Below the pieces are notes generated by a model. It saw only the letters and a list, made by a program, of their open reading frames with translations, did no database searches and was not told where the DNA came from. A DNA stretch of 64,000 nt from Schmidtea nova (taxonomy: Eukaryota), in NCBI GenBank assembly GCA_044892505.1, contig CM097883.1, positions 18,786,001 through 18,850,000 on the forward strand, written 5' to 3'. Below are positions 6,593 through 28,753 of the stretch, in pieces. The stretch's first letter is position 1. Each line of letters begins with the position of its first letter. A program made the position numbers and the translations under genes.

Positions 6593-6963
6593 TGTTGGGC
6601 CAGCCAAATCGAGCAGCATCTGAAAATAATGTGCAATCAATAAAATAAATTAAATACAGAATAACAACAAAATAAATTACCAACACCAAAGCGTAACAAA
6701 ATAGGCGGCAACATCTAAAAGAAATAACATATTAATCAAAACAACAAAAATCTTCAAAACTCACTCATGCGAAGCAGATAAAATTGGAATATGACAGCGC
6801 GTGGGCGGATGTCACCGAAGACCTAAAGCAAAATCAAATAAAAATTAAATCATACAAAAAATAAACTTACCGCATGATTAACCAAACAAATCGGCGAGTT
6901 AAGTTAGGCAGCAAAAAGCCGACAACATGAAAAAAACGAAGCAAACATACACACATACTCGAT

Positions 6964-7002
6964 GCTGATTGGCTAACCAACAACACCGGTTCAGTATAAA
7001 TA
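6964..7002 (+). promoter_or_regulatory. LTR promoter: inverted CCAAT box (CTGATTGG) and TATA box (TATAAA 6995-7000)
   Basis: Canonical motifs and spacing; similar CCAAT-then-TATA arrangements occur in the related LTRs at about 5.6 kb and 42.9 kb (minus strand). Confidence 0.7.
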
Positions 7003-7093
7003 CTGAAGTAAAATCAGTATTTGGGAATGTCATTTTTACCGAGTGTAACTTGCAGTTGAGCATTGAGAACATTGTAAATCCAACTTGAAGAGA

Positions 7094-7107
7094 AATAAAA
7101 GGTAATT
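7094..7107 (+). promoter_or_regulatory. Poly(A) signal AATAAA abutting a 5' splice donor (AAG|GTAATT)
   Basis: AATAAA 7094-7099, GT 7102-7103. Related LTRs show AATAAAG|GTATGG and AATAAAG|GTATGT at the equivalent position. Confidence 0.65.
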
Positions 7108-8122
7108 TGGTGTTATGTTATTGATGTGTCTAAACCCTCATAATTGTTTATAACCATATTAAAATCCATAAGGTTTTCCGGAGGCCTAACAGCCTGACGG
7201 ATTCTCTGGCCTCTCAGCGCAACACAACCTTTCGGTTGTGAGGTGCTGATGCGGCGGGACCATAGGTGTACTAAATATTTGGAAAGCGGAAGGGGTTAAA
7301 TGCACATAGGGTATCGAGTAAGACCTAACGATCATGAATGAAATCAAGGTAGAAATGATCTAATATAAACGTTATGCATCACGATGATAGGGTATCGAGT
7401 ATAAACTAGTAGTCGTAAACGAGCGTAAAGTGAAGCCCGTTTGTTTTGGAAGGAGATATATTGTGGCGAAGTCTAGACGAGGGATAGACGTGTAGTGAAT
7501 AATATTAGGGTAAATGAATTAGGCGACGACGAGGGTAGGTATATGTCAACCTTAGCGCGTACGAGTTCGGGCATAGTGAACCTAGTATCAAGGGTTAAGG
7601 ATAATCGATAACCTCTGTCAGCTGTGTTTAGTCGCCAGGAGAGATGATAAATAAATCACAGGCATCGAGAACTGATAAAATGATGAACCCCAGTGAGTAA
7701 GTACCACAGGAACTTACGAGAATTACCCGACATGGGATGATCATTGCTGGTTAGATGAGGAAGTGATTGAGAACGACTGATGAAATTGAATGTAATAAAT
7801 AGTATTATCCATAAATAAAAACGGTGGTAGTTGAGTGATTGAACCTGATTGATGAGTATTAAGTATAATAGCGATATGATTAACAAATGCAACAAATCGT
7901 GCGTAGCTGAATCGTCGAAATAAAAAGCGGAGTACATTAGCTTCAAGCTATCATATAACACGACCCACATTAAGTCACCAACAATGATCCGGCAAAAATA
8001 CAGAATGTACCACTCAGACCTACAAAATTTCATAAATAATACGGGTGGGTCGACTAATATAAATAGGTCCGTTCTACCATAGAATCCGTAGAGTAAAAAC
8101 AACCATCTTCTTTAGAAATACT

Positions 8123-8758
8123 ATGGTGAAACTGGAGAGTTGCCGAGAGAAGCCGATGGTCGCGTACCCTATAAAGATAGAGAATACCATCCTTCGTAGG
8201 AAACGGCGCACCCGCTCCGTCCTCAGACCAAATACGAACCCAAATATCAGAGGAGAGAACGAAGCACCCCGAAAAGTTGTCGAAGTATCACGTCGCCACC
8301 TACGACGATGGATGAGGGCCCATATGAGCTCAGCCGCTAGCACCCCAGCTTGCACGTTTGAACTACAGTTGCGGTGGGAAGGAGATACCGATTGGGTACC
8401 CTCCTCGGATCGTATCAAGCCGGAAAATACCCGATGGTTTTATCAACTCCTAGATGAGTTAAAGCAACCCCGCTGGCTACTGAGTACCGGAATGATGTCC
8501 GGAAAAGAGCTACATCAACTCGGATACATGCTGCTAGACAGGCCTCGGTGTGGCGACACTGGGGAAGTCTTCGCCTACTCAAACGCGCCAGGAAGCGTGT
8601 CATTGGACCAACACCCCGAGCCCAAAGACCTTCGTCTCTGGGAGGTATTCATCTTTCGGGACAAGTTAAGTTGGAGCCCTGTCCCGGAGTTATACCATGA
8701 GAGCGGAATCCGTCGTGACGAGAACACGGCCGACCAGGAATTACGACCCTTCATCTAA
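8123..8758 (+). CDS. LTR-encoded ORF-A, 211 aa, unknown function, Arg-rich N-terminal motif
   Basis: Intact in both LTRs; four diverged homologues in the window conserve all or part of RHLRxW and RWEGDxxW. Confidence 0.8.
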   Translation: MVKLESCREKPMVAYPIKIENTILRRKRRTRSVLRPNTNPNIRGENEAPRKVVEVSRRHLRRWMRAHMSSAASTPACTFELQLRWEGDTDWVPSSDRIKPENTRWFYQLLDELKQPRWLLSTGMMSGKELHQLGYMLLDRPRCGDTGEVFAYSNAPGSVSLDQHPEPKDLRLWEVFIFRDKLSWSPVPELYHESGIRRDENTADQELRPFI

Positions 8759-8949
8759 ATCGCAAGGAAACCGATCCACCGAAGGAATATTTGATGTGTA
8801 TTAAAAATAAATGTATTAATTTTTGGGTTTTGTTATGTCTTTGAATGTATGAAGCGATCTGAGAGTGAAACACCTGTTTGATAATAAAGATAGCGACTGG
8901 GAGAACATACAAACCATACATAACCCGATTAATTATACATTTTACAGAG

Positions 8950-9513
8950 ATGAATGAACATCCAACTAGGAACTACAAACAAGAGGCAAAAGAGCATAAA
9001 GCTCGATCGCGAGTCCTAGAAAACCGCTTGCGGCAGCTAAACGAAGAGCACCAGCGAATTAAAGCCACGTGGTTCAACCCAGAGAGGGTTAAAACCATCC
9101 TGCAAGCCAGATACAGGGCGGAACGAACAATCGACGAGCAAGCTAGGGAGGTAGCAGCACTAAAGACGGAGCTGTCAAATTACTTGAGGGCATCAACTCA
9201 GGAGTTTATCACCGAGCAACTACGCCCAGTGATCAGGGCTAGCACCTTTAATCGGTGGGTGGACACAATATCGATGACAACAAGTACCCAAACGGAAATA
9301 GAAACCATCCCAATCACAACTACCCCAACGTCCCCAATAATTCTGGAAGGCTCGAAACGAACAAAGAGACGGAATCGCTTGGGAGCGAAAAAGCGTAGGG
9401 AGAGACGCGCATATGCGGATCGCCTAGGAATCGAAGTAGACTTGCTCAGTGGTCTATCTGAACAAGAACTACTAAATGTAATTCGACCCGCTGTATTGTT
9501 GAACTACAAATAA
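8950..9513 (+). CDS. LTR-encoded ORF-B (coiled coil, TSTQT motif, basic region); ATG at 8950 preferred over TTG at 8878
   Basis: Homologues at 3225-3821 and 40585-41142 start at the equivalent MN; acceptor-like TTTACAG precedes the ATG. Confidence 0.8.
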   Translation: MNEHPTRNYKQEAKEHKARSRVLENRLRQLNEEHQRIKATWFNPERVKTILQARYRAERTIDEQAREVAALKTELSNYLRASTQEFITEQLRPVIRASTFNRWVDTISMTTSTQTEIETIPITTTPTSPIILEGSKRTKRRNRLGAKKRRERRAYADRLGIEVDLLSGLSEQELLNVIRPAVLLNYK

Positions 9514-9903
9514 ATGTATAAAATGAATGATTTGACTTGTCTTGTTTGTTTGACGCATGTATGAGAATTAAAAGTAACAAAAACCTGGTTCATTTAAAGC
9601 TGCAGATATCTAAAAGGTAAATTACCCTAGGACAAAAGAAAAGAGCATAAGTGGGACCGAAAGAAAGCCACAGACACCTTCTATCGGTAGTGGTGGACCC
9701 GTGAATAAACAAGGGAATAGTAGCCGAAAGGTTGCTCACCTGCCTTGTCATTTCACAACGTTGACACAGTACCAACATGATGAGTAGTTAGGGATACATC
9801 ATGGGTGTCAGCGGGGGAATGTTTTTATGTTGGCGAGATCACCCTAACATATAAAATCATAACGATCTCCGTTGTCAATCTAACCAACACACCAGCATAA
9901 ATT

Positions 9904-9922: not shown

Positions 9923-10443
9923 AAATCGATCTTTGTGGGAAAAAGTGAATTCGATATCTGCGGACAGTTTAGAGCGCATGAACAGGGATGAAGTGAACTT
10001 AGCGAGGAAAAGTAAAGTAAATGATAACATAAGGTTTGAGGGTCCTGAAGCAAGAATGAATCGGGTTGAAAAATAATAAATAAAAGTATGAGTGTAAAAT
10101 AATGAGAATGATGAGCATGATAAAAGTATGCATGAGAACGAAAGTATGAATGTGGAAATATGAGGATGAATGAAGCAGGATGAATAGTATGTGGAGTGAC
10201 AGTATGAAAAGTGATGAAAAGTACACATGACGTAAAAGTATGATGAAAAGAGCGCATGAAAATGGTATGAGTATGAGCAACTAGCAATGATCATGTCGGG
10301 GCGACATTCAAGAACACGGGGAGATACGCAAGTAACGACGTAAAACAGAACAACAGAAAGCGAACAGTAGGGCTACCATAGAATAGGAATGATAAATAAT
10401 AAATAAAAATCGATAACAAAATTAACGAGAATTCATTCAGGGG

Positions 10444-10902
10444 ATGGAGAACAAAATAAAAGAAATGCAAACGTTTTTCGAAACAAACAACGAGACAGTG
10501 GAGACAATAACGAGAAAGTTAAAACGACTCGAGGTAGGAGAATATCACGAACCGACAAACAACACAGAAAGAGCCGAAAGGATGATGAGCTTAAGTGAGA
10601 ATAAGAACACAGTGGATACAGCAACACGATATCAGTGGTATAGAGAAAGATTAAACAACCCTGAGATGAATATCGAGTGTCACAGGCTAGAACAACAGTT
10701 AACAACAAAACACGATGAGTGGATAAGAATAACAACAGAACATACGAGACAATATCTGACGTGTCATATCTGTGAAATGAATAAGATACAGATAATGTTG
10801 TTGCCATGTGGGCATTTCCGATTCTGTAATGAATGTAAAATAAATGAACGATGTCCTATGTGCAACCTTCCCGTATCCGAGAAAATAACAGTGTACTTGT
10901 AA
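10444..10902 (+). CDS. Coiled-coil protein with C-terminal IAP/MDM2-type RING finger (putative E3 ligase)
   Basis: CHICEMNKIQIMLLPCGHFRFCNECKINERCPMCNLPVSEKITVYL-stop has the spacing and terminal position of IAP RINGs; no BIR domain is seen. Confidence 0.85.
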   Translation: MENKIKEMQTFFETNNETVETITRKLKRLEVGEYHEPTNNTERAERMMSLSENKNTVDTATRYQWYRERLNNPEMNIECHRLEQQLTTKHDEWIRITTEHTRQYLTCHICEMNKIQIMLLPCGHFRFCNECKINERCPMCNLPVSEKITVYL

Positions 10903-12973: not shown

Positions 12974-13846
12974 AACGAGAGATGTCAGTTGAAGTAAAGG
13001 TGAGTAGAGATGAGAATTGAAATGAAGTAGTAAACGTAGTGCGAATAGGAGATAAAGCGAATAGTTGGGAAATAGAGTAGTAGACAGATAAGGGGGATTT
13101 GAACTCAGAGCCAGAGAAGCTTGAGAAAAGTAAAGGGGATAATAAGAGCGCTGAGCGACAAAGTAATTGGGGAACTGGGGAAAAGTAATTGGTGTATTTG
13201 AAAAAGAATAGATAATTGATGCGACTGCATAGATAATTTAAATAGACTTAAAATCAAGGGAAATGGGAAAAATGGGGATCTTCATGAATTATGACTACAC
13301 CCGTGAGAGGGACGAGAAACACGATAACGGGGACGTATCGTGTAAGTGATTATTTGTTTTAAGGAAACAAATCAATCAAGCAATTCAAAGCAATCTAGCA
13401 GTCAGAGCAATCAAAAGAAACAAATCAAAGAAGAAGCAAAGCAAAAGCGGAGTAGAAAAGCAGTTGAGAATATAAGCAGTTGAGGAATAGACAAAATTGA
13501 GGGACGAGAAACAAGATCAGGTATAATACCAATCTTAACGGAAGCAGAAAGAAAAGCAGCGAAAAGGACAAGAACAGGTAACAAGCCTAAGCAACAAAAG
13601 AACAAACAAGTAGAGATCAGCGATAATTCGAGTAATAAAGAGAATCAAGAAGAAACCCCAGAAGATCTAGAAGTACAAAACGAAGTAGAGACGATAGACA
13701 GTGAACTAGTCAGAGAAAACAGAACAAGAAGCGAATCAAGAGATAACGAAACAGAGAGTAGCGAAGAAGAAGAGTCGAATTCAGAAACAAGTGGTGAACT
13801 AGAATTAAAGAAAACTAGTACAGTATTCCAAGATAGTGGAATCGGG

Positions 13847-16513
13847 ATGAGTGATCACAGAGAGGATCTAAGAGAAAAATTCAAGGGCGAACCATTTAAT
13901 GGAGACGCCAGTAGATTGGACACGTTCCTGAAAGAATTTGGCATATTCGTGGATATATGCTGATGGAGTGCAGAAACGTTAGCGAATCGAATCCCGCTAT
14001 ACTTGAAAGATAGCGCATTGGATCTGTATATTGAGAAGAGATCGGGAAGTAATCCACCCAGAACGTGGGAAGCAATCAAGGAGTTCTTCCAACAGACGTT
14101 TGGGATAAATAAAGTGTTGAACGAAGCGTTCGATGAGTTCTCAGCAAGAAAACAGAGGAGAAACGAGTCAAATGCAGTGTACGCAAGTGAATTAAGAAAG
14201 TTGGCGAAACTGGCATTCAACAGAGGAAGCCCAGTAGACGAAGAATTGATGACAGCGTTATTCGTACGAGGTCTCAGGAGACCTGACATCAGAGCACAAG
14301 TGGGATGCAAAGGATGTAAAACAGTAGATGAAGCGTTGGAAGCAGCCAACCTATTCGAATTGCATATGGCAATGAATGACATGAGAATTACGGCGGTAAT
14401 GGGAAAAACGACAGAAGATGAAGAACAAGGAAAAAGAAACATGAATCAAAGTATTCCCCATTCACAGAGATTGTTCAAAGAACCGCCAGCGAGGAAGAAT
14501 AACGGATATATCACAGTAAACACGAATGGAGGAAATAGTTACAATGACAGGCAGAATAGGCAATGTCAGACGTGTGGGAAAAACGGACATTGGCAACAAG
14601 ATTGTTTTCAGAATGTAGCCTGCAAACTGTGTGGACAAAAAGGTCACTCAGAGAATCGATGTTATGGGAAAACGTGTTACACATGTGGGAAAACGGGACA
14701 CATGTCAAGAGAGTGTAATCAACAGAGAAGTTGGTCAAACAGTGGAAATAGACAGAACTATGGAAATCGACCAAGCTATGGGAATCAGGGTCAACAACGG
14801 AATAACCCAAACAGCAGTGCAAATGAAGCCAGTATGAAAGAAGCTAAGTTGAGACAGGAGGTATCCAGATTACACGAGATAATCGAAAGCATGGCAAAAG
14901 GAAGCCAGCAAGCTGCTCAACCAAAGATAAACATGATCCAGTTAATAGAAGCTGAGGCCGAAAGAGAGAATAGAGAAAGCCAACAGAAACATAATCAAGA
15001 ATGGGCTAGAGTACGACGAGAAGAAGAACAAGTCAGGCAACAACGATTACAACAGTTAAAAAAGGGAAATCCAAGGATCAACATGATGCGAGCAATGATG
15101 GAAGAGAAGCAGCAGGATGAGTCAGACGAGTCAGAAGTTAAAGAGAAAAGAAACGAAGGACAGAAACAAGAAGAAGTGAATCAGGAAGTAGAAGTCGCGG
15201 AGCAGAAGCAAAAGGATGAAGAAGTAGAAAAAGAAACAGAAACGGAAAAAGAAGTAGAAAAAGAAACGAATCAAGAAGAGGAAGTAAGAATCAAACAAAG
15301 AGGAATGTTGGTGATCATGCCGAATGATCACGTGTGGCGATTCAAATACGATGTAAAAGAAGAAGTGGGAAGACTGTTCAACAAAGTAAATGAGATGATT
15401 CCGGGAGTGACGAAACTGCCCAGAGAAGCATTCCTACAAACAGAGGATTTACCGGAAGTAAAGTTGAAGATGACTGATATATGGGAAGATATGGGAGTAA
15501 CAGAAACGAAAATAAACGTGATGATCATCAGAGAGGTGGAACCGGAAAAAATCCCACCACCAGTGAAACATCAAACTCGGATTAGTCGAATATTCAAGGG
15601 AAAAATAAGACGAAGACGGTTGGAAGAAATAGACGAGTTGGAGAAAAGAATGGGAAAAGCCGAAATAATGGGAAACGAGAAGGAACTAACCCAGGAAGTC
15701 AGCAAAAACGAAACGAGACCAACCGCGCATATTGGGATGCTGAGACACCCAAGACAAGAATTGTCAGATGAGGAAGACGACAGCGAAGTTAGCAGTCTGG
15801 CAGGAGACATGCTAAAGGAACCAGAAAACGAGGACAAAAAGATGGAAGTAGTCGAGACAATAGAAACATTGTCAGTAAAGGAAGACGAAATTCAGAAGCT
15901 GATGGATAACGCGTTGGAAGTAATCCATAACGAGGAGTTTATCGACACGAAACGATATCGAAAGTTTATACGAGCAGTATGGCAGATGAAGTATAAAAAG
16001 TGGTTACAAGAAAGAGAAGTGAGAGTAATACAAGAGTTCATAGAGAGGTTATTGAAAGAACCACTCAACGAATACATAATACAGATATGGATAAACGAGT
16101 GTTCACCGAGAATCTGGATAAGGAACCCAATGACGGATGGAATTTACCGATGGGTTGAAGACAGATTGGGAAGCTCGTACAAAGACAAATTCATATATTC
16201 GGAAAACGGATTGGTGAGAAAAGGAACGCATATGATAGACACAGGCATATGGCCAGGAGAAATAACAACGCTATCTATATGCAACACCAAAAAGGAAGAG
16301 AACTTACAAGGAATCGTCAAAGAAGCGAATACGTGTTACGAGATGAGAATAAAACCTCAGTTGATAGAGGCAAAAGAAAGAATCTTGGCGGAGAATTTGA
16401 ATACGATGATAGAACAGATCATCCAACAAATCAAGAAACATCGAAAGGAATTGACGAAAAGCGAGTATGAGAATTTGAAACAGTGTATCGAGAACATACG
16501 AGATACAAGTTAA
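13847..16513 (+). CDS. gag: Gag (capsid, three CCHC knuckles, long C-terminal extension with two ubiquitin-like folds); interrupted by in-frame TGA at 13961-13963
   Basis: FGIFVDIC*WSAETLANRIPLYLKDSALDLY is gag N-terminal-like; knuckles are CQTCGKNGHWQQDC, CKLCGQKGHSENRC and CYTCGKTGHMSREC. The frame is otherwise open back to 13346 except for a TGA at 13481. Confidence 0.9.
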
Positions 16514-16555: not shown

Positions 16556-19500
16556 ATGGGAAAAGAAATGTTTAAACGAGGAGAGGTATCAGATCTGAAG
16601 ATTACCGTGAGATTACCAAACGAAGAGACAAAACAAATTGAGGTAATACCAGATAGTAAAGTGGGAGAAATAGTAGATGTCATCAATGAGACGATATTGC
16701 AACGAGAACGGGAAGATGAATTCGAAGATGACATCGCGATAAAATACAAGGAACATCTACTGAACGAACGTGACGAAAGACGAGCGTACAAAATCGGCAT
16801 ATGGGATAATTATCAGACAATACACGTCATCAGAATGGATGATGTGCAAAGAGCAACACCAAGAGATGAGGAAAGGAAAAAGAAACGACGAGAGGACGTT
16901 ATGCGTAAGCTGAGGCAGATAGTAGAAATTTATCGGAACTGGCAGATGAAGCCAGAATGGGAGACAATATTGGGAGAATTGGATCTTAACAGACGACGGT
17001 TGACGCCAGTAGAGAGGCAATGGGATAACAAAGAAAAATGTTGGAAAGTGAAAAGAGGCGTGTATGAAGAAGATCCAGAAGGAGAAGACAGATACGAAAC
17101 GAATACGAAACGGATATGTATGGTAACAAGGAGAATATTACCAACGGACTTAGACGGACCAGAAACTGCAGTAATATGGGCAGAATTGGAGAAATTGAAA
17201 ACGAGTGAATTGATCGAGCTATTGAGAGGAAATACTCGGGGAAAAAGACAAACAATAAAAGGCTTAGCACAATTCATAATCTCAAATGGAGAAGACATAA
17301 CGAACTTGAGAAAAGTAGCTAAAGCGATAGCAGAATACAAGAGAGTTAACGAGTGGTGTCCAGAGCAACTAGACGATGTAATAAAAAAGTGGAGAAACAA
17401 AGAGTTTGCGGAGGAAACGCCACAGAAAATACATTTGAGGATAATGTATCCGAATCAGAGAAAAGAAGAGTTTTGGGTGATGCTAACAGAAAAAGTGAAA
17501 AGTGTTAAAGAGAAACTGATGTACGAACTACCATTCCACCTGCAACATCAAGGACGATCGTTGGATAATAATTTAGAAATCTGGCTGACACCAGTACAAT
17601 TGGACCTAATGAACACGCTAACAGTGGCACAAATAGTGGGTCAACCACTGAAGTTTAAAGAGGAAAAGAAAGCGAAGGGAAGCATGAGTACACCAAGTCC
17701 GATGAAGTCAACAATGACCCCAGGAACAAGTTCGGGACAAGTAAGAACAACACCAATAAAAACGAGAGAGAGAACACCGCCAGAAGCGTATGACGTCGAT
17801 GAGATACTAACAGATAGTGACGAGGCGATAGAAGAACTAACAAAGTTGACTCAAAAACCAACGGCGAATATTTTCGACAGAATAATACAGATGCCAATAA
17901 CGTCACCAGCAGAAATCGACGATCAAGGAGTGGAACAGGAGGTAGTCATAGAAATGGTAAACGATTCGGAAGACGAACAAGGACAACCACAGTTTACTCA
18001 AGAAATGGAAAGATGGTTGGAACAACGAGCAAACGAAGGAAGGGATGTTACAGAAGAAACAGGAAGAGCAACGAGATTTGTAGAAACCGGAACTGGAATG
18101 GAAAAACGACCAAGAGGAAGACCAAAGATAGATCCAGCAACAACAATCCCAAAATCAAGGGAAGAAAGGAGACAAGAGCAATGGGAGACTTGCTTGAAGA
18201 AACTGGATAAAATCGCAGAGATCAGAGGAAAAGAGGAGAATCAAGTTTGTCAAGGAGAAGAATGGCTCACCAAAACGATAATGGATGTGTTAGCGGTAAT
18301 TGACCCAGAATTAAAGAATTTGTGGCGGATAAACGAACCCAGTACAAAGGCAAGGATGCTACACAATGCGATAGCACCAATTATGCCAGAATTGATAAAA
18401 GCGAAAACAAAATCAAATCATCTGGATTGGCAAGGAACCACGATGTTAATAAAAAAGCTACTGAACGGAACAGAAACGGACAGCAAATATCTAGTAGCAA
18501 TCTCGTATACGATATACAATTTGTTAACGCTAAGCCGAGGAAGCCCGAAGTCAAGTCCGATGGGAAGACATATCAAGAATACGGCGATGATTATCGAGAA
18601 AGAAATTGAACCATATATCCTCAGAAAAGGAGGATGGGAAAAGTTCATAAAAGAAAATCAGACAAAAGAAGGTTCTAACGTGATGAGAAAGAAACTCGAA
18701 GGAGTATTGAGAGAAATGGAGAATAGACAAACGATGCAAGGAAACGGAAGATCGACGTTGAATTTAAACTCGATAATCATGATGATGTTAGTATGGTTGT
18801 TAAGCACAGAGGGTGTAACAATATTTGAAGTATTTGATTGTGATCAAATGAAGTTAGGAGAAAAGTACTCATTGAGAGGTACGGAGCAATGCAAAGATGC
18901 AACTCCAGTAGAGTTGAAAGAGAATAAAAAAGAACAATGGTACCACGTATATCAAGAGGCAGAACTAATAAAGACAATGGTGAATGAATGCAAGGTACAG
19001 AAGACGAGATTCGCATTCTATTGTGGGAGAGGACATTATTCAGCAATTGTCATGCCAGGAACAGAAAGAGAACCAATCGTATTGCAAGGGGAAGACTGCG
19101 AAGCATTATTTAAACATGGAGAAGTGACAACGAGAGATAAAATCAAGATAAAAGGAAAGCCAGGAATGATGTTGCAGCAGACGTATTATGTAGCAGGACG
19201 GATTACGGGAGGAGAAGGATATTGTCAAGGAGAAACCTACCCAATATTCGGGGTACCTGCAACCAACTTAGTAGTGATGGATACGTACATAGTCGAACTG
19301 AAAAGCTACGAAGCATTCTTCGAACCAACAACAGGAGAAATGAAAACGTTATCCATGTGTAAAATTGACAGAAGCATGTGTCAAACGGGAATGTCAACAT
19401 TGGTGTATAAACCAAAAGTGAACGAATGTCAATTACAACTGCTACAAGGAACAAAGTTCGACGAAATTCAAGGAAAAACGTTCCAGGAAGAGGACGAGGA

Positions 19501-22500
19501 CGACAAAGCTAGAGCAAAACATCTCAAAGAAGCTTTAGAGAATAAAAGACAACTGAAACCGGATCATAGAGAGAAACGGATAGAAATGAGAACCACACCA
19601 ACAGTGTTGATAACCACAAACCAGGATGTGGGAATGAGATTCATAAAAGGGAAAGCAACCCTTAAGTGCAGTACAACAGTATACGAAACGAACTATCCAG
19701 GAATATACGTGTCAAAGCAAGAAGTGCCGAATGCGAAACCCAAGATCGACACAATGGATATCAAGCTACACTTGTATGTGAATAATAAAATGGATTTCTT
19801 ATTCCATAGAGGACAAGCCTCATTGCAAAAAGTGTACTACGATCTGATAAACAACGATTGTATACTGAATCGGGAAATATTGAAGACAAAGTTGGCCGTA
19901 GCGATTACGAATCCAGATAGCGCGATGCCGTTATTACCACTGAGAGAAGGACATTTCGGAAGAGTGGTTGGAGAAGCAATGTATGTATACATTTGCGAAA
20001 AGACACACGCATCGCTAGCAGCAACAACGCAGTTGAAACCTGGACAATGTACAAACGAACTAGAAATCGATTACAAAGGAAAAGTACGATACGTTCAACC
20101 GGTGACGAGAATCATCAATCCACCAGGATTTGAACCAAATCCATTCAACTGTAGTAATGCGTACGGACCGCTTTATCAGAAGCCAGATGGCAAATGGGTT
20201 ATGTTCCCAGGAAGAACTGAAGTATTAGCACCAAGAGAATTTGAGCTAATGCAGTTGTCGAAAGATAGACAGTTCAGCGACGTAGATGTCTCAAACAACG
20301 GAATCTATAGTCCAAAGGATCTAGAAGCAGCAAGGCAGAATATACTATTTCCGGCAAGAAGAGAAGCATTACTGTCAAATATCGTAACGATAACGGGAGG
20401 AACGAATTATCGAGAAGGACCAAATTACGAACTGCTGTTGTCACCGGCACATTTCAAGAAAGCCACAGAAAACATGATGAAGGCAATGTGGGGAAGATTC
20501 CTGATATTCGGACAAATGATGGCTGGAATACTGGGTGTTATATTGATAATACAAATCGTCAGAGTGATAATAACGCAAATGTTAGCGTGCTTCGATATCT
20601 ACAAGAGAGAAAAGAAAGTGAATTGGAAAATGGTAGTAGGGTTTTTACCATTCCTTGCGAAAACAATGGTGTTACATGGACACTCAAAAGACATACATCG
20701 AATAAAGAGGTTGTTGAAGATACTTGCAAAAATGAAAGGAACTAACGAAGATGTCGGAAGAAAATTCAAAAAGATAATGCAAGATGAACAAGCAAGACGA
20801 CAACTGAAGAAGGAAAGGAAAGGATTATGGGAAAGAGTGAGAGGATATCGAACACAAGATGATTCAAGTAATGATGACGATGATGATGACGATCGAGGAG
20901 GACAAGCGAATATAAACCAGATTCCACAATACACCGAAAAGAGTGCAGTTGAGAATTGGAGATACAGCGCTCCACCTCAGTCAATGTATAACGAACCGAT
21001 ATACAAAGCGAAGCCGAATATGATGCAGATGATGCCGATGACAAGTATATACCCGATAATTCCAGAAGGATGCAAAGTAAAACGGGGTAGTAGCGTAAAC
21101 TCGTTGGAAGACACGCACACGATAGCAGTTATGTCCACAAATATGGGACCCATCTTAACAACAACCGTAGAAATAAACGGAAGAGAAATCGAAGCTATGA
21201 TCGATACAGGTGCGAACATTTCGGCAATCGACATCAACTATATACCAGAGAAAAACCAAGGAGAAATCGAGAAGACGAATGTACATGTAATCGCGTGCAG
21301 TCAAGAGACAGTAGAGGTAGCCGGAAGATGGTTCGTAAAAATTAGGCATCGAGGTGCAGAAATCAACACGTACATCGCTGTAATACCATCGCTGAGTGTA
21401 CCATGTATTATTGGAACTGACCTGATGCCAGACCTGTTCAAAGAAATCGTGATTGATCTAGGAGCAATGAAGCTAAAAGATAGGACAGGAAAAATCTGCA
21501 GGATGAAAGTTAAAGTGGCAAGTGCGGAACAAATAGTAGTGCCAGCGAGACATGAAATGATGTGTTACGTCAAGATCGATTCGACAATAAAAGGAGATAT
21601 GGTATTCGAACCAAGTAAGAAGTTCGAAGCAAAGAAAGAATTACCAATGGCAAGAGAATTGGTCACGATAAACCAAGAAGGAGAAATACCGATCAATCTG
21701 GTGAACTTCGACGAAGAGGACAAGATAATATACGAGAATGAGAAATTGGGTAAATTGACACCCATGTCCGAAATCGAAATACCAGACAAGAACGAGAAAA
21801 GCAAAGACGAATTACCATGGAAAATCGACAGTGTGTTGTTAGACGAACGACAAAAAGAACAGTTACAGAAACTGTTGATGGAATATAAAGATATATTCGC
21901 AGCATCAGATCTGGATTTAGGAACATGTGACGTAACCTTACACACGATACCATTGACGGACGAGACGCCAATCGCATTACGACCATACAAATTGGCAGAA
22001 GCTCAAAAAACAGTGGCAGAAGAAGAGGTACAAAAGATGTTAGATGCAGAGGTCATCGAACCTAGTTGCTCACCCTGGCAATTCCCAGTGGTGATGGTGA
22101 AAAAGAAGGATGGAACTCAGAGATTCTGTATCGATTACAGACGATTGAATGCAGTTACAAAAAGAGATACGTACCCACTGCCAGACATAAATGAAATGTT
22201 ATTGACGTTACAAGGAGCAGCTTATTTCACGTCACTAGATTTAAAAAGTGGATATTGGCAGATCAAAATGAAAGACGAGGATAAAGAGAAGACAGCATTT
22301 ACAATCGGACGAGATCTGTACCAATTCAAGAAAATGCCGTTTGGGTTAACAAACGCGCCAGCATCATTCCAGAGATGCATGAATTTCGTAACACATGGCA
22401 TAAAACAATGCATGGTGTACATCGACGATCTATTGATCTACTCCGCAACATTTGAAGATCACTTACAAGATATCAGAAATGTGTTCGTGAAATTAAGACA

Positions 22501-25500
22501 GTGGAAACTGAAATTGAAGCCGTCAAAGTGCGATTGGGCAAAAGAAAAAGTGACATTCTTAGGTCACATTGTGTCAGCAAAAGGAAAAGAACCAGATCCA
22601 AGGAATATCGAAAAAGTCAAAGAATGTCCACCACCAAAGACAGTGACTCAAATACAAGAATTTTTGGGATTATGTGGATATTATCGAAAGTTCATCAAGG
22701 ACTATGCCGGAATATCAAAGCCAATGCAAGAATTGGTAAGACAAGATGTGTCGTTTGTATGGGGAGAAGAGCAGCAAACAGCATTTGAGACATTACGAGA
22801 CAAACTGATTACAGCACCAATATTAGTCCATCCAGATTTTAAGAAGCCATTTTTGTTAGCAACAGATGCAAGTGGATACGCAGCAGGAGCAGTACTAGGC
22901 CAATTCGATGAAGAAGGCAAGGAAAGAGTAATTGGATATTACAGTCGAACCTTCAGGAAACATGAAAGGAATTACTCAGTCACGGAAAGAGAAGCCTATG
23001 CGATAATATTGGCAATCAAGCATTTCAAGTACCTACTGTGGGGTCATGAAATATATATCACGACGGATCATCAACCATTGGTATGGTTAGGCCAACATAA
23101 AGAATCATCAAGTAGATTGATGCGTTGGGCGATGCAGTTGCAGGAATACTCACCGTTCATAAAGTTTAAAGCAGGAAAAGCAAATGCAAACGCGGATTGC
23201 ATGTCAAGGTTTACATTTCCAGAATTGGTGAACCTGAATGCTCAAAAAATATGTGCATTAATAGCGGAAGATTTGGATTTCAGCGAATTAAGGAAAGATC
23301 AACTCGAAGATGAGGAGTTGGGATTGATCAGCAAGTATCTGAAAGAAAGGGAAATGGAGATATTCGGCAAGAACCAAACGTTACGCGAACATATGCAGAA
23401 ATATCAGCACCGATATGTGATGGAAAAAGGATGGTTATTGATACAAGATGGAGAACGAAGATTAATGTGCTTACCTGCGAATAGGCGAAAGGAAATCATG
23501 ACTCAATATCATGACGGAAAATTAGGCGGACATATGTCAGCGAAAAAGACAATCGGGAGATTGAGACAAAAGTATTTTTGGCCAACCATGGAAGATGATG
23601 TGAAAGAATGGATAAAGAACTGCTTAACCTGTGCGACAAGAAAGAACGTCGGAACGAAGTGGAAAACACCACTAAAACCTATGCCAATACCTGCAGAACC
23701 AATGGCAACAATAGCAATGGATGTAGTTGGGCCATTGCCGGAAAGTTTAAAGGGGAATCAATATATCTTAGTAGTCACGGACTACCTAACGAAGTTCCCA
23801 GAAGCGTTCGCAATACCAGATCAAAAGGCGAAAACAGTCGCAAGAATATTGGTGGAAGAGATATGCTGCAGATATGGAACACCAAAGAAAATCCTAACGG
23901 ATCAAGGAACGAATTTCATGAGTGAAATATTGGACGAAGTTACGAATTACTTCCGAATTGCGAAATTACGGACATCCCCATACCATCCGCAAACGAACGG
24001 TCAAACAGAAAGGTTCAATGGAACATTAATACGCATGTTGTCGAATTACGTCAGCAAACATCAGACTGACTGGGATGAATATATCAACTTGTGTTTAATG
24101 GCATATAGAATGTCAATACATGCGGCAACAAAGCTAAGTCCATTTCAACTGATGTACGGAAGAGATTGCAACTTACCGATCGATTTAGAATACCAACCAC
24201 CATTATCACAATACATGGAGGTTGACGATTACGTTACAAAGTTCAAAGAAAGAATGCAAGAAATCTGGAAAACGGCGGAACTAAACATCAAGTTCTATCA
24301 AGAGAGTTATAAGGATCTACATGATCAGAAAAAGAATGTGAAAGCACATGATTTAAAAGTTGGAGATTGGGTGATAATCGAGACACCAGAGATAATACCC
24401 GTTACGGTCAAGAAACTCCAACGACCAGGCAAAGGGCCATACGAAATAACAACAGTAAATGAAAACAATGTGCGAGTACGATTGGTGAACAATCCATTGG
24501 TAAGACCAATATACGTGAATGCATGTCGATGCAGGAAAATACCAAAGACAGCAACTCTATCACCAGAGAAACGAGTGATGACAAGATCACAGACGGCGAG
24601 AATCAATATGTTACGAATACAACAAAAGTCGCAAACAAGTCTAGAAGACAACCAAAGGGAGATAATAGACATCAAAGAACTGGCAAAGAAAACCAGAGAA
24701 ATTATACCAGAATGGAAAAGGTGGCACGATTTCAATATACTGTCAGAAGTTCGAAAGAATGTAATGGATTATGCGAAGGATAGGACAGCACATCCAATAA
24801 CAAGAACGCTGCTCGAGGAAATCCCTCAAACATTGAATCTACAAGACAAAGACGGTAATACCGCGTTGCACAATGCAATCGAGCACAGTGGAAACGAAAA
24901 AGTGAAGGAAATTGTAGAGATGATACTCGAAGGTGGAGGAGAAATTGACAAAGTGAACTGGGAAGGAATTACTCCACTCATGATGATGACGATTCACGGA
25001 AGAAACGATGAAATAATCAAGCTATTCGGAAACACCAGATCGAATTGGTTGACAAAAGATAAAGAGGGACGAACATTCTTGAATCATGCAATTGATAGAG
25101 CGAATCACCGAATACTGAAGTATATCACGGAAAACGCCACGTGGGAAATCGATGAACTAACCAGAGGATCGATCATGAAACAAGCAATCGGGGTAAAGAA
25201 CAGTAAAACCTGGAGAATATTGCTAAAATGGAAACGACCAGAAGGAGATTCGTGGGTCGTAAATTGTAATGAAGTATTCACAAGGGGAGAAAATGCGTTA
25301 CTGAAACATCTATTGGAAGTAACATACGATCCAAAAACACTTGCAGTGTTGATAGCGAGAGATACGCTACGGGTTAGTGAAAACCCAAGAGAATACAAGT
25401 TGGAAGACAGGAAGAAAGAACTATTCGGATTAATCAAGAAATGGTGTGATAAGCAATGGAATCCGGATATGAGCTTCGAACATTTCTATGACATCCAAAA

Positions 25501-28500
25501 GCAGCACAAAGAAATAAGCAAGAGATATAAAGAGCTGATGGAAGCATTGAAATATGGACAATTCTTCAGACAAGCAGTGTATCAAGACCAACGGATGAAA
25601 CAGATGCAAACACGAATAAGAAGCAAAGCAGTGTTGTTCAGTGCAAAAGCCGATTATCAAGAGAGATTAGACGCAATCGTAGCAAAAGCACAGGAAAAAT
25701 TATCGGAATTCAAAGAGAATAAAAACTCGTTGGAAATACTAGGAGCAATTACAGAGAAAGTGCACAGATATGCACAAGGGGATTATAACGAGAGTGACAT
25801 AGAAACGATCAAGAATCAAATGCCAGTAGCATTCCTATTATCGAGGGATGGGAGATTGCCAATACACTGGGCATTACGTCGAAAGAAGGAAAACGAAGTG
25901 CTGGAAATAACGAAAGCGATGGTCAAGTGCGAAGCAGATATGAATACGGTTGATGATGATGGAGATACAATCATGATAATCGCAGCAAGAAAGAAGACGA
26001 ACTTTAAAGTGCTAAGTGAATTATACGAAGCAGGAGCAAGAATCGAAGGGAAAAATGGAAAGAATAATTCCATCATAGATATCGCAATACAATGGAACAA
26101 CTTTGAAATGATCAAGTTCATAAAGTCCATCAAGAGACAAGAGGACATAGAATACCTGGCGAATAACGTAAAGAATTTCAGTCTGACAGTAATGATACAC
26201 GACATAGAGAAAACGAGAGCATTACTAACATGGGTGAATCCGATCACCAAGGAACCGGCATTCAAGATCAATGACAATATGGAACAAAATCAGAATTGGT
26301 GTATCAGAAGCGCATTATTAAGACACAAAAAGCCAGAGATAGTAGAAGAATTCCTAAAGAGAAGAGATTTGAAATTCACGAACAATCCAAAGGAACAGGA
26401 ACGAATGGGAAGATGGAAAGAATTGTTCAGAAAATATGTAAATGAGTGGGCAAATGCCAAAGAAACAATCAAGCAAAGTAGACTAAAAGACATGGAACCA
26501 TTCAAAGAGATGGAAATACGTGAATTCGAGTCTAGCACACTCGCGGTTCAGGCGTATGAAAGATTGATTGAAGAAATTAATGTCGAGGACGACATTTTCA
26601 AAGGATCAGGGGGTGGTTACAGAGATTTCGACGACAAAAGCAACAACGAAGAGAACAACGAAGACAATGACAACAAAAGAACGGAGGATAATGAAAAAGA
26701 AAGACAAGAAGAACCGAAGCCAACGAGAAACGACAAGAAAAGAGAAGCAGAAGAACGAGAAAACAATGGAACAAAAGACGAACGTACAAACTATGGAAAA
26801 CGAACAGGAAGTCTACTTTTGAGACCGGAAATGTTGTGTATTGCGATATTGATAACAATCATCGGACAAGGAGAAGCCAAGAAACAATACGTCACGCTAG
26901 AGATAATCAGAGGAAATGAAATATATGAAAGAATATGCTGGAAAGAAAACCTGAAGAAAAACGATACGCTGAAGTGTATATTGTCAGATCTGAAGCGAGA
27001 CGTCATCCAAATCAAAGGATTGGAGAAAGAAAAGTCATACATAATATGCGCAATAAAGCAGAGAGGAGAACCAAAAGCACCTCAAGTAACTGCATGCCAA
27101 TTATACAAAGCAACGGAAGCGCTGAAGATACAGAAATGGATTGAGAAAAGAAGCGAAGAGACAACGAGAAGAACAGAAGTGGAATCAGAGAAAGGGAAGA
27201 ATCAATCTGAAGCAGAAGAAGGAATCAGAAACCGAACAGAGAAAGAAAGAATAACCAAAAATCCAGCGGGCAAATTAACATTCCAACCAGAATTGATATG
27301 TGTAGCATTAATATTAATCCTCATTAAGAGAATCATGGAGGACATAGATATCAGCGTGATGACGTTAGTAAACATCCAAGATCAACGAACAACGAATGGA
27401 AGATGTTGGGGACGAAACAATGAGGTAATTGGAATCAGCGAAACAAGAGAAATAGTAGAGGCGGAGACAAATGAGGAAATAGAGATAACTGAAATAGAGA
27501 CAGATAGAAAATATGAACTATGTCTCATGGAAAAGGCAGCAAACGGAAACAGACCAGGAACAAGCGAGTGTAAAGTGTTCCAAGCAAAGGAGATAATTGA
27601 ATTCCCAAAAAGAAAGAAACAAGATCAAGAAACGATTGCGAATGAAGTAGTAACCGTGGAGATAAAAAACATTGGTCGGAGAACAATTGGGATGTGTTGG
27701 AGAAAATACATCGGAGTATCGACCAGTCACGTACTACCGCAATGCAGAACGAGAGAACGAGGAATCCCGTTTCAACTAAATGGATTCGAAGTCGGACAAG
27801 CTTACGAAATTTGCGTAATCCGAAGAATAAGAGAAGTAATACAAAGAAGCCTGGAGTGCAGACTGTACAAGACGCCAGAGCAAATTAACGGTACAAGAAC
27901 GATCGAAATGGGAGGAAGTCGACAAAGGAAAAGAAAGTCAAGAAGAACCACGACAACCAACAGTCAAGGAACTCAACAGACAACAGAAGGGACGTCAACA
28001 AAAAACGAACCGGAATCAACGACCCTGATAATATGGAAGATCCATAAAAAGGTCCTAGAAATCTGTTGGACATTAATGCCAAACAGTATGAGAGAGTCTC
28101 CACGAAACTGTCAAAAGACATCAAATGACAAAAGGGAAACAATCGAGGTAGAAATGAGGAGGTTGAAAACAAACGCAGAATACGAAGTGTGTGCAATCGA
28201 AGAAGTAGACGCACAAGGAAATCAACAAGAAAGGTGCGAAACCTATTACACGCCAAGGAACATAACGATAAAAGGGGGAACCCGCAAGTTAGAATTCCGA
28301 GAATTGAGTCAGAAAAGAGAACAAACAGAGACGGAGGAAATACTACAAAATCAACAAGAAAGATGGGAACCCGAGAAAGTGATCGAAGAAGTCAGACAGA
28401 GACAACAACAATACAAACAATGGGAAGCGGAATGGAAAGGTCAATATGGCGTGATGATAAACCAAAGTGAAACTCCGAAGATGAGCATTGGGAAAACAAT

Positions 28501-28753
28501 AATGGGATTAATCAGCATGGGAGTATTCATAGGGTGTATACCACTGATAATGGTCATGATAGTATGTTGGAGATATGGCATGAGAAATAAGACCATAGCA
28601 GTAAAATGGCCAGACGTAAAGGTCATGAATTATAACATAAAACTACCAAAAGAAGTACGAGAAGAACTGAAAAGACGATCAAGACATGAAGAGATGTGGG
28701 TACAGATCGAGGACGAAGAACTGTACGAAGGAAAACCCGTGGTGATTGTATAG
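16556..28753 (+). CDS. pol: 4065-aa polyprotein: Ubl-Ubl-Bcl2like-SP-glycoprotein-TM-PR-RT-RNaseH-IN-ANK-ANK-FN3like x4-TM
   Basis: One uninterrupted ORF with IDTGA (PR), YIDD (RT), LATDAS (RH), H-H-C-C plus D-D-E and GPY (IN), and the extra domains listed separately. Confidence 0.95.
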   Translation: MGKEMFKRGEVSDLKITVRLPNEETKQIEVIPDSKVGEIVDVINETILQREREDEFEDDIAIKYKEHLLNERDERRAYKIGIWDNYQTIHVIRMDDVQRATPRDEERKKKRREDVMRKLRQIVEIYRNWQMKPEWETILGELDLNRRRLTPVERQWDNKEKCWKVKRGVYEEDPEGEDRYETNTKRICMVTRRILPTDLDGPETAVIWAELEKLKTSELIELLRGNTRGKRQTIKGLAQFIISNGEDITNLRKVAKAIAEYKRVNEWCPEQLDDVIKKWRNKEFAEETPQKIHLRIMYPNQRKEEFWVMLTEKVKSVKEKLMYELPFHLQHQGRSLDNNLEIWLTPVQLDLMNTLTVAQIVGQPLKFKEEKKAKGSMSTPSPMKSTMTPGTSSGQVRTTPIKTRERTPPEAYDVDEILTDSDEAIEELTKLTQKPTANIFDRIIQMPITSPAEIDDQGVEQEVVIEMVNDSEDEQGQPQFTQEMERWLEQRANEGRDVTEETGRATRFVETGTGMEKRPRGRPKIDPATTIPKSREERRQEQWETCLKKLDKIAEIRGKEENQVCQGEEWLTKTIMDVLAVIDPELKNLWRINEPSTKARMLHNAIAPIMPELIKAKTKSNHLDWQGTTMLIKKLLNGTETDSKYLVAISYTIYNLLTLSRGSPKSSPMGRHIKNTAMIIEKEIEPYILRKGGWEKFIKENQTKEGSNVMRKKLEGVLREMENRQTMQGNGRSTLNLNSIIMMMLVWLLSTEGVTIFEVFDCDQMKLGEKYSLRGTEQCKDATPVELKENKKEQWYHVYQEAELIKTMVNECKVQKTRFAFYCGRGHYSAIVMPGTEREPIVLQGEDCEALFKHGEVTTRDKIKIKGKPGMMLQQTYYVAGRITGGEGYCQGETYPIFGVPATNLVVMDTYIVELKSYEAFFEPTTGEMKTLSMCKIDRSMCQTGMSTLVYKPKVNECQLQLLQGTKFDEIQGKTFQEEDEDDKARAKHLKEALENKRQLKPDHREKRIEMRTTPTVLITTNQDVGMRFIKGKATLKCSTTVYETNYPGIYVSKQEVPNAKPKIDTMDIKLHLYVNNKMDFLFHRGQASLQKVYYDLINNDCILNREILKTKLAVAITNPDSAMPLLPLREGHFGRVVGEAMYVYICEKTHASLAATTQLKPGQCTNELEIDYKGKVRYVQPVTRIINPPGFEPNPFNCSNAYGPLYQKPDGKWVMFPGRTEVLAPREFELMQLSKDRQFSDVDVSNNGIYSPKDLEAARQNILFPARREALLSNIVTITGGTNYREGPNYELLLSPAHFKKATENMMKAMWGRFLIFGQMMAGILGVILIIQIVRVIITQMLACFDIYKREKKVNWKMVVGFLPFLAKTMVLHGHSKDIHRIKRLLKILAKMKGTNEDVGRKFKKIMQDEQARRQLKKERKGLWERVRGYRTQDDSSNDDDDDDDRGGQANINQIPQYTEKSAVENWRYSAPPQSMYNEPIYKAKPNMMQMMPMTSIYPIIPEGCKVKRGSSVNSLEDTHTIAVMSTNMGPILTTTVEINGREIEAMIDTGANISAIDINYIPEKNQGEIEKTNVHVIACSQETVEVAGRWFVKIRHRGAEINTYIAVIPSLSVPCIIGTDLMPDLFKEIVIDLGAMKLKDRTGKICRMKVKVASAEQIVVPARHEMMCYVKIDSTIKGDMVFEPSKKFEAKKELPMARELVTINQEGEIPINLVNFDEEDKIIYENEKLGKLTPMSEIEIPDKNEKSKDELPWKIDSVLLDERQKEQLQKLLMEYKDIFAASDLDLGTCDVTLHTIPLTDETPIALRPYKLAEAQKTVAEEEVQKMLDAEVIEPSCSPWQFPVVMVKKKDGTQRFCIDYRRLNAVTKRDTYPLPDINEMLLTLQGAAYFTSLDLKSGYWQIKMKDEDKEKTAFTIGRDLYQFKKMPFGLTNAPASFQRCMNFVTHGIKQCMVYIDDLLIYSATFEDHLQDIRNVFVKLRQWKLKLKPSKCDWAKEKVTFLGHIVSAKGKEPDPRNIEKVKECPPPKTVTQIQEFLGLCGYYRKFIKDYAGISKPMQELVRQDVSFVWGEEQQTAFETLRDKLITAPILVHPDFKKPFLLATDASGYAAGAVLGQFDEEGKERVIGYYSRTFRKHERNYSVTEREAYAIILAIKHFKYLLWGHEIYITTDHQPLVWLGQHKESSSRLMRWAMQLQEYSPFIKFKAGKANANADCMSRFTFPELVNLNAQKICALIAEDLDFSELRKDQLEDEELGLISKYLKEREMEIFGKNQTLREHMQKYQHRYVMEKGWLLIQDGERRLMCLPANRRKEIMTQYHDGKLGGHMSAKKTIGRLRQKYFWPTMEDDVKEWIKNCLTCATRKNVGTKWKTPLKPMPIPAEPMATIAMDVVGPLPESLKGNQYILVVTDYLTKFPEAFAIPDQKAKTVARILVEEICCRYGTPKKILTDQGTNFMSEILDEVTNYFRIAKLRTSPYHPQTNGQTERFNGTLIRMLSNYVSKHQTDWDEYINLCLMAYRMSIHAATKLSPFQLMYGRDCNLPIDLEYQPPLSQYMEVDDYVTKFKERMQEIWKTAELNIKFYQESYKDLHDQKKNVKAHDLKVGDWVIIETPEIIPVTVKKLQRPGKGPYEITTVNENNVRVRLVNNPLVRPIYVNACRCRKIPKTATLSPEKRVMTRSQTARINMLRIQQKSQTSLEDNQREIIDIKELAKKTREIIPEWKRWHDFNILSEVRKNVMDYAKDRTAHPITRTLLEEIPQTLNLQDKDGNTALHNAIEHSGNEKVKEIVEMILEGGGEIDKVNWEGITPLMMMTIHGRNDEIIKLFGNTRSNWLTKDKEGRTFLNHAIDRANHRILKYITENATWEIDELTRGSIMKQAIGVKNSKTWRILLKWKRPEGDSWVVNCNEVFTRGENALLKHLLEVTYDPKTLAVLIARDTLRVSENPREYKLEDRKKELFGLIKKWCDKQWNPDMSFEHFYDIQKQHKEISKRYKELMEALKYGQFFRQAVYQDQRMKQMQTRIRSKAVLFSAKADYQERLDAIVAKAQEKLSEFKENKNSLEILGAITEKVHRYAQGDYNESDIETIKNQMPVAFLLSRDGRLPIHWALRRKKENEVLEITKAMVKCEADMNTVDDDGDTIMIIAARKKTNFKVLSELYEAGARIEGKNGKNNSIIDIAIQWNNFEMIKFIKSIKRQEDIEYLANNVKNFSLTVMIHDIEKTRALLTWVNPITKEPAFKINDNMEQNQNWCIRSALLRHKKPEIVEEFLKRRDLKFTNNPKEQERMGRWKELFRKYVNEWANAKETIKQSRLKDMEPFKEMEIREFESSTLAVQAYERLIEEINVEDDIFKGSGGGYRDFDDKSNNEENNEDNDNKRTEDNEKERQEEPKPTRNDKKREAEERENNGTKDERTNYGKRTGSLLLRPEMLCIAILITIIGQGEAKKQYVTLEIIRGNEIYERICWKENLKKNDTLKCILSDLKRDVIQIKGLEKEKSYIICAIKQRGEPKAPQVTACQLYKATEALKIQKWIEKRSEETTRRTEVESEKGKNQSEAEEGIRNRTEKERITKNPAGKLTFQPELICVALILILIKRIMEDIDISVMTLVNIQDQRTTNGRCWGRNNEVIGISETREIVEAETNEEIEITEIETDRKYELCLMEKAANGNRPGTSECKVFQAKEIIEFPKRKKQDQETIANEVVTVEIKNIGRRTIGMCWRKYIGVSTSHVLPQCRTRERGIPFQLNGFEVGQAYEICVIRRIREVIQRSLECRLYKTPEQINGTRTIEMGGSRQRKRKSRRTTTTNSQGTQQTTEGTSTKNEPESTTLIIWKIHKKVLEICWTLMPNSMRESPRNCQKTSNDKRETIEVEMRRLKTNAEYEVCAIEEVDAQGNQQERCETYYTPRNITIKGGTRKLEFRELSQKREQTETEEILQNQQERWEPEKVIEEVRQRQQQYKQWEAEWKGQYGVMINQSETPKMSIGKTIMGLISMGVFIGCIPLIMVMIVCWRYGMRNKTIAVKWPDVKVMNYNIKLPKEVREELKRRSRHEEMWVQIEDEELYEGKPVVIV
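18180..18660 (+). other. Bcl-2-family-like domain in the polyprotein
   Basis: EIEPYILRKGGWEKFIK resembles BH2 (Bcl-xL HLEPWIQENGGWDTFVE). KYLVAIS sits at the Bcl-xL spacing of GRIVAFF, but the NWGR signature is lost. Confidence 0.65.
18760..20680 (+). other. env: Signal peptide + chuvirus/herpes-gB-type (class III-like) envelope glycoprotein + TM
   Basis: IIMMMLVWLLSTEG signal; FEVFDC...YSL...C; YQEAELIKTMVNECKVQKTRFAFYCGRGHYS; Cys-rich ectodomain; MWGRFLIFGQMMAGILGVILIIQIVRVII anchor. These resemble Chuviridae G proteins as I recall them. Confidence 0.8.
21140..24520 (+). other. Protease, reverse transcriptase, RNase H and integrase core of the polyprotein
   Basis: DTG 21203-21211; YIDD 22418-22429; TDAS about 22862; integrase HHCC about 23510-23640, IAMDVVGPL, LTDQGTNF, GQTERFN, GPY about 24435. 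Confidence 0.97.
24830..26130 (+). other. Two ankyrin-repeat clusters C-terminal to integrase
   Basis: QDKDGNTALHNAI, VNWEGITPLMMM and KDKEGRTFLNHAI (about 24830-25130); SRDGRLPIHWAL, DDDGDTIMIIAA and NGKNNSIIDIAI (about 25830-26130). Confidence 0.85.
26820..28580 (+). other. Membrane-protein module: two signal-like hydrophobic segments, four Cys-containing FN3-like repeats, C-terminal TM
   Basis: Repeats with CW...(L/I/F)xxxxxYx(I/L/V)C...C at about 26885, 27350, 27645 and 28020; RPEMLCIAILITII and QPELICVALILILI segments; TM IMGLISMGVFIGCIPLIMVMIVCW. Confidence 0.6.

Follow-up and report, generated by a model that had tools for sequence, protein, structure and literature searches.

A Burro-type giant retroelement of Schmidtea nova with a diverged Bcl-2-like domain in frame before a predicted internal signal peptide of Env

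The Burro and GYPSM1 elements of planarians are reportedly the subject of work by Jurka in 2007 and by Grohme and colleagues in 2018. According to the available text of a published account, these elements carry a BCL2-like motif, with env lying between BCL2 and protease in the same frame, so the occurrence of a Bcl-2 motif together with an in-frame env is already on record (PMC6431247). Signal peptides, membrane topology and a surface protein after the integrase are not mentioned in the accessible part of that account. In addition, the available sections of another report describe expression of BURRO1 in differentiated planarian cells upon piwi knockdown (PMC8532177). The element described here resembles Burro in its size of about 30 kb, its long LTRs and its single polyprotein of about 5000 aa, as well as in its Gag zinc knuckles, BCL2-like motif, env with mononegavirus glycoprotein matches, PR-RT-RH-IN, ankyrin repeats and MATH/TRAF, as far as the accessible text lists them (PMC6431247). 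It differs in having TRAF as a separate downstream ORF, and neither BIR nor dUTPase gave a Pfam match in the 10 ORFs scanned of the element present in the window, i.e., the whole stretch of 64,000 nt that was analyzed. The dUTPase-like motif of Burro came from HHpred, a more sensitive method.

In hepatitis C virus (HCV), the junction between core and E1 has the same arrangement as the C-prM junction of flaviviruses. In HCV, the end of a cytosolic protein on the capsid side is formed by the signal peptide of the glycoprotein that comes next, which anchors this protein once signal peptidase has cut, as the available text describes it (PMC5402940), and the junction proposed below has the same layout. 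However, these are unrelated RNA viruses in which the cuts have been shown, whereas here they are predicted, and the element is not a member of Flaviviridae. Viral Bcl-2 proteins (BHRF1, BALF1, ASFV A179L, poxvirus F1L and A49) are also captured host folds, with an identity of 9-18% and a degenerate BH1 in the sections available (PMC11209288), and such proteins are the top viral structural neighbors of the model of the window domain. A49 is described, in the accessible part of its report, as keeping the Bcl-2 fold without BH3 binding (PMC4358236). Viral Bcl-2 proteins are, however, free-standing genes of DNA viruses, whereas here the domain is embedded in the polyprotein of a retroelement and lacks its own tail. 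Finally, the Anakin elements of mosquitoes are LTR retroelements with a captured chuvirus-type glycoprotein, but they belong to BEL/Pao and not to Gypsy, and the available text mentions neither a Bcl-2 domain nor the word "signal" (PMC7642597).

The window (GCA_044892505.1, contig CM097883.1, 18,786,001 to 18,850,000) contains a Gypsy-type LTR retroelement of 29.5 kb, a giant of the Burro type (Table 1). The near identity of its LTRs and the CGAT on both flanks indicate a very young insertion. Premature stops interrupt the window copy at 13961 and 16511, and the sister locus L115 is open across the same stretch. Out of 1241 candidate copies in the host genome 150 were scored, and all of them matched (150/150). 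Many sister copies have open frames of 5075-5114 aa, a second family reaches 5687 aa, and shorter families of about 3000-3400 aa with the same Bcl-2/Env junction exist in the same genome. We gathered seven element families, A (that of the window) to G, by a PF00452 search and further searches; by RT identity they form three lineages (A/B, C/D/E and F/G), with about 50-54% between lineages. ORFs of 231 and 214 codons are located within each LTR (8063-8758 and 8869-9513; also 34235-35685) with no clear Pfam match, and two accessory ORFs (30792-31961 and 32029-32559) precede the 3' LTR. The one at 32029-32559 has a signal-peptide-like start, a coiled coil and a hydrophobic segment, with a weak GP41 match (E-value = 0.001). 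Elsewhere in the window, an older inverted LTR-related piece at 40192-43261 is about 77% like the LTR of the element, and a 21-nt unit repeated about 84 times in tandem (both strands open) occupies 54780-56700.

Table 1. Features of the element and of its polyprotein, in window positions
Feature	Position	Strand	Basis and remarks
5' LTR	6593..9897	+	3305 nt; 99.9% identical to 32765-36069; TG...CA ends; 4-nt target-site duplication CGAT ahead
Accessory ORF, C-terminal RING finger	10426..10902	+	PF13920 E 6e-9
gag region, in frame with main ORF	13484..16513	+	Zinc knuckles PF00098 E 2e-10
Open part of polyprotein, 4079 aa	16514..28753	+	ORF list, Pfam
RPRGRPK motif, presumably AT-hook-like	18107..18127	+	Ahead of Bcl-2-like domain
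Predicted Bcl-2-like helical bundle	18254..18658	+	Model helices at residues 41-174; AlphaFold, Foldseek, profile match to Bcl-xL
BH1-equivalent TDSK instead of NWGR	18476..18487	+	Alignment to Bcl-xL
BH2-like motif YILRKGGWEKF	18614..18646	+	GGW invariant in 16/16 rows of element alignment
Variable linker	18659..18769	+	Predicted helix, basic n-region; lowest between-family identity of the region
Predicted internal signal peptide of Env	18770..18823	+	h-region 18770-18808, c-region to 18823; predicted cut 18823/18824
Env ectodomain, mononegavirus/chuvirus-type fusion glycoprotein	18824..20488	+	Starts FEVFDC; PF24664 E 3e-71; N-terminal part E 4e-21
Env transmembrane segment, predicted stop-transfer returning Pol to cytosol	20489..20593	+	Hydropathy peak 20516-20572
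Protease, reverse transcriptase, RNase H, integrase (Gypsy order)	21161..23989	+	Pfam RVP, RVT_1, RT_RNaseH, Integrase_H2C2, rve
Ankyrin repeats	24824..26125	+	PF12796 E 8e-19
Second predicted internal signal peptide, ends GEA	26807..26878	+	Hydropathy; families C, D, E, F have similar segments past the integrase
Four Cys-bearing repeats, weakly fibronectin-III-like	26882..28261	+	Y, C, C invariant in 7/7 rows; best E 0.08
C-terminal transmembrane segment of polyprotein	28508..28564	+	Hydropathy
TRAF-like accessory ORF (RING, zinc fingers, MATH)	29302..30732	+	PF22486 E 8e-28, PF02176, PF21363
3' LTR	32765..36069	+	CGAT directly after
Accessory ORFs with AG 1-4 nt before the ATG	10444, 29320, 30822, 32035, 8950		

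A sequence-only reading of this locus had proposed a Bcl-2-like domain before Env, with the BH2-like motif EPYILRKGGWEKF followed by a hydrophobic stretch, and the motifs do lie as it described. The motif EPYILRKGGWEKF is found in the 4079-aa frame with the BH2 Trp at residue 708 (18635), and no other match to [WYF][ILV]xxxGGW exists in any of the six window frames, which contain six GGW in total. The GGW is kept in sister elements (16/16 rows), and this conservation together with the shuffle scores rules out its occurrence by chance. A profile made of families C-G only, leaving out the window family and its close sister family, matched the window best at residues 567-710 and gave the domain 20.1 bits, whereas none of 2000 shuffles exceeded 8.7. 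Without its last 20 residues the domain scored 7.4 bits, at the shuffle ceiling (maximum 7.8), and hence the BH2 end carries much of the signal. The Bcl-2 homology of the window domain is linked through this C-G profile, because the window domain used alone gave no Bcl-2 match in Pfam or PDB and, likewise, no usable match in the ESM Atlas. The profile of 16 element domains matches Bcl-xL gap-free over helices 4-8 (E-value = 6e-8), and all 60 among the matches listed are Bcl-2-family chains. PF00452 was matched by 13/16 element domains at E<=1 (best 3e-8); a genome search with it returned host genes as well as numerous matches within long frames of retroelements, some sister-family copies being above the curated cut-off. 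A search of 1.84 billion protein representatives led to 21 matches, which we read as 12 element-like proteins, 8 cellular-looking Bcl-2 and one saposin (P0017, dropped), and word-indexed protein searches found nothing for the domain.

The loss of BH1 NWGR, also pointed out in the sequence-only reading, extends to the other elements: over 25 element rows, the Trp is present in 0/25 and the Gly in 1/25, and Lys or Arg occupies the Arg position in 21/25. Its count of 48 residues from the LVAI Leu (residue 660, 18491) to Trp708 was correct, but the claimed match to the spacing of Bcl-xL is off by one, since the Bcl-xL Ile following NWGR aligns with Tyr659 of the window domain. The BH3 motif has the form L-x-x-x-G-D, and this signature is absent from predicted helix 2, where the alignment is uncertain. 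Judged by these alignments, the window domain is a Bcl-2-fold homolog and not a canonical pro-survival member. Ahead of it, the RPRGRPK motif that we take to be AT-hook-like (Table 1) has RGRP-type counterparts 153-172 residues before GGW in 5/9 proteins examined and is absent in families D-G. Two possible ubiquitin-like folds also precede the domain, at 16580-16840 (weak RA/UBX matches, E-value = 0.08-0.15) and at 17420-17650.

The fold was modeled with AlphaFold from 26 element rows, cellular Bcl-2 rows being excluded from the input; a model from the single sequence (pLDDT 42) was discarded. The mean pLDDT is 70, the core blocks mostly reach 83-92, helices 2-3 and the tail are weak, and an extra low-confidence helix lies ahead of the predicted bundle. 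Foldseek against PDB presented a Bcl-2-family title (Bcl-xL, Bfl-1, Mcl-1, BAX, BOK) in 44/45 rows listed, with a probability of 1.00 and a TM by target of mostly 0.50-0.67, while no match was obtained at E<=0.001 (best E-value = 0.004). Among the ten best viral rows, eight carry the name of a viral Bcl-2 protein, two of these names being identified from general background. The profile matches and the model thus indicate, in line with the sequence-only reading, that the domain ahead of Env has a Bcl-2 fold and is a diverged relative of Bcl-2.

Purifying selection acts on the domain (dN/dS 0.17-0.42 in four family pairs; in the fifth pair synonymous sites are saturated and pN is 0.16), and it is weaker than on Env (0.03-0.22). 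In a midpoint-rooted tree of 35 rows and about 110 columns, the 16 element domains are placed on one side of a branch with a support of 95/96, and they adjoin a group of short host-type Bcl-2 genes with 89/94, which is not firm. A single capture of the Bcl-2 domain is likely, on these sequences, among the elements sampled. The loci L032, L034, L038, L046, L052 and L055 are short host Bcl-2-like genes that form an expanded group, and three of them, which adjoin the element domains in the tree, may lie close to the donor.

The order of Bcl-2, linker, h-region, small-x-small site and Env is kept in seven families of the genome and in seven outside proteins (P0001-P0007). In the window, the hydrophobic run SIIMMMLVWLLST (18770-18808) is followed by EG-VTIFEVFDC, and across elements the stretch opens with an n-region that is basic or neutral, continues with an uncharged run and closes with a short polar c-region. 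The h-run has a median length of 13 residues in 16 element rows (5-17) compared to 18.5 in six cellular rows (14-24), with overlapping ranges. Its distance from the BH2 Trp is 30-57 residues in elements and 15-25 in 5/6 cellular rows, row P0021 being left out of the latter range; the run of P0003 is split by Lys and Pro. An own tail anchor 15-25 residues past BH2 is absent from the elements, where the run comes later and is not C-terminal. On the hydropathy scale used, the h-runs of families E, F and G are hydrophobic enough to remain in the membrane. The PF24664 alignment begins at profile position 4, which corresponds to 18773 and is therefore within the stretch, as it does in families C, D, F and G. 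That the stretch aligns with the N-terminal start of the glycoprotein profile speaks for its origin from env, and it is on this Pfam alignment that such an origin rests. No element with the same Env but without Bcl-2 was found, the word-indexed search with the Env region returning the query only.

For the cut site, the residue sets of the (-3,-1) rule and the hydropathy scales were taken as general background, and the register was measured from the invariant Asp-Cys of Env over 14 junctions (the seven families and the seven outside proteins). A cut four residues before Asp-Cys agrees with the (-3,-1) rule in 13/14 junctions, which are not independent of each other as the seven families make up three lineages and some outside proteins are kin; the next best registers agree in 8/14 and 7/14. 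Triplets at this site are A-T-A, G-N-A, S-T-G, C-T-G, T-T-S, A-E-G and others. The sequence-only reading had suggested an internal signal peptide that translocates Env, which the profile alignment and this register support, and had placed its cut at STEG/V; the latter was rejected as the family cut site, agreeing with the rule in 6/14 junctions against 13/14 three residues further on. That choice is accounted for by a private Ile (of VTI) at -1 of the shared site in the window copy, a position held by a small residue in 19/19 close copies, so that the window copy breaks the rule at the shared site and follows it three residues earlier. Due to this Ile and the two upstream stops, the window copy itself is a poor case for expression. 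The hydrophobic stretch is likely to be Env's own signal peptide used internally, with a predicted cut just before FEVFDC.

DNA identity between families A and B rises abruptly from about 65% to about 92%, and the step coincides with the codon for the first residue of predicted mature Env. Third-codon identity is 0.79-0.86 from 18824 to about 20750, against 0.40-0.58 in the gag-side, Bcl-2, linker and pol parts, and the right edge of the block is just past the anchor (window 18824-20750 compared with L021-L024). This pattern indicates that Env was exchanged as a block between A and B, its left edge being the predicted mature N-terminus; alternatively, the jump may mark only the start of conserved sequence. 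The region after the integrase (window 26807-28564) has counterparts at L075, L076, L072 and L118. A third hydrophobic stretch is located there at 27269-27325, within the Cys-repeat region, and the Cys-bearing repeats number one in families C-E and four in the window, with a duplicated block in family B. The second signal-peptide-like segment and the terminal anchor (Table 1) suggest that the internal-signal strategy is used twice.

Instead of being part of env, the stretch could descend from the tail anchor of a captured bcl-2 that was recruited as Env signal peptide, leaving a stable membrane-anchored and putatively BH3-binding anti-apoptotic protein. We find this unlikely, although its orientation is that of a tail anchor, the domain never occurs apart from the stretch in the 14 junctions examined, the stretch remained on the Bcl-2 side in the apparent Env exchange between A and B, and most rows keep Lys or Arg at the BH1 Arg position. 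Moreover, binding to BH3 peptides or to Bak/Bax is recorded in the available text for poxvirus F1L and DPV022, neither of which has recognizable BH motifs (PMC11209288). Opposed to this origin are the alignment with the glycoprotein profile N-terminus, the n/h/c anatomy with its conserved cut site, the shorter run, its greater distance from BH2 and the BH1 positions that have lost Trp and nearly always Gly. For these reasons the tail anchor put forward in the sequence-only reading is not retained. If no additional cut released the domain, the product would remain joined to Gag as a precursor at the ER.

That a separate spliced RNA encodes Env, in which case the stretch would act as a normal N-terminal signal peptide and the Bcl-2 domain would be the end of the Gag-side product, appears highly improbable, as full-length translation must cross the stretch anyway in the absence of a stop between Bcl-2 and Env. 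The window does have in-frame Met codons at -47, -36 and -30 from the cut, but no Met is conserved: between BH2 and the cut there is none in family C, and in family G it occurs only within the h-region. Acceptor-like AG, following an AT-rich tract, precedes the ATG by 1-4 nt in 5/7 accessory ORF starts listed; before the stretch, however, no acceptor-plus-ATG was found, the sites before the window Met codons not being above the ORF background. No GT..AG joint ending near the stretch was present in contigs of four runs of unknown kind from one study, a result that is uninformative on splicing. Hardly credible is an uncleaved signal-anchor, by which Env would stay covalently joined to Gag-Bcl-2 across the membrane. 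The small residues at -1 and -3, in one register in 13/14 relatives, speak against it, as does an h-region that is short for a permanent anchor; the Ile at -1 of the shared site would fit it in the window copy, where STEG/V nonetheless remains as a fallback site. HCV is able to bud without the core-E1 cut, as stated in the accessible part of the source (PMC5402940), which would be in its favor.

The reading that we prefer, and consider probable, is that a diverged Bcl-2-fold domain stands in frame before the Env of a Burro-type element and that the stretch is the internal signal peptide of Env, cut before FEVFDC. During translation of the polyprotein, the stretch would insert with its N-side in the cytosol, Env would pass into the ER lumen until its transmembrane segment halts the transfer, and Pol would be made in the cytosol. 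The second signal peptide after the integrase would repeat the process for a small surface protein. After the signal peptidase cut, the spent signal peptide would keep the whole precursor, from Gag to Bcl-2, fastened to the ER, as with HCV core, and the element protease or signal-peptide peptidase might later trim the tethered precursor. Release of a Bcl-2-like protein by signal peptidase, as envisaged in the sequence-only reading, is not expected, for what this enzyme alone would set free is a precursor reaching from Gag to Bcl-2, about 1,700 residues long, instead of a Bcl-2 protein. Membrane anchoring of the Bcl-2 domain would consequently reflect topology and not a retained Bcl-2 tail anchor, and this topological anchor is likely ER-bound and possibly transient. 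By analogy, we infer a flavivirus- or HCV-like processing of the polyprotein. In light of the TRAF, RING and ankyrin cargo of the element, the domain would most likely be a host-protein-binding module that dampens death or immune signaling. A bolder view, which we put forward tentatively and with some doubt, is that Burro-type elements are flavivirus-style retroviruses whose polyprotein would cross the ER membrane at least four times, with signal 1, Env, anchor, Pol, signal 2, surface protein and anchor following one another. The Bcl-2 fold, on the spent signal peptide of Env at the Gag tail, might then be a matrix-like adaptor docking capsids at Env-rich membrane and/or a packaged death inhibitor, and would be the first working viral Bcl-2 outside DNA viruses.

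Our search found no report, for Burro polyproteins, of the signal-peptide reading, the corrected cut site, the second signal peptide or the Env swap at the predicted cut; the figures and supplements of Grohme et al. 2018, which may mark hydrophobic segments, were outside this search. The proposed mechanism offers a testable answer to a published puzzle, namely the route by which an env in frame between gag and pol gets to the membrane. If true, it would mean that a retroelement exploits the host signal peptidase on one giant polyprotein, with a Bcl-2 fold as the link between Gag and the ER. If the Bcl-2 homolog works, a very abundant element with recent activity could also affect cell death in its host.
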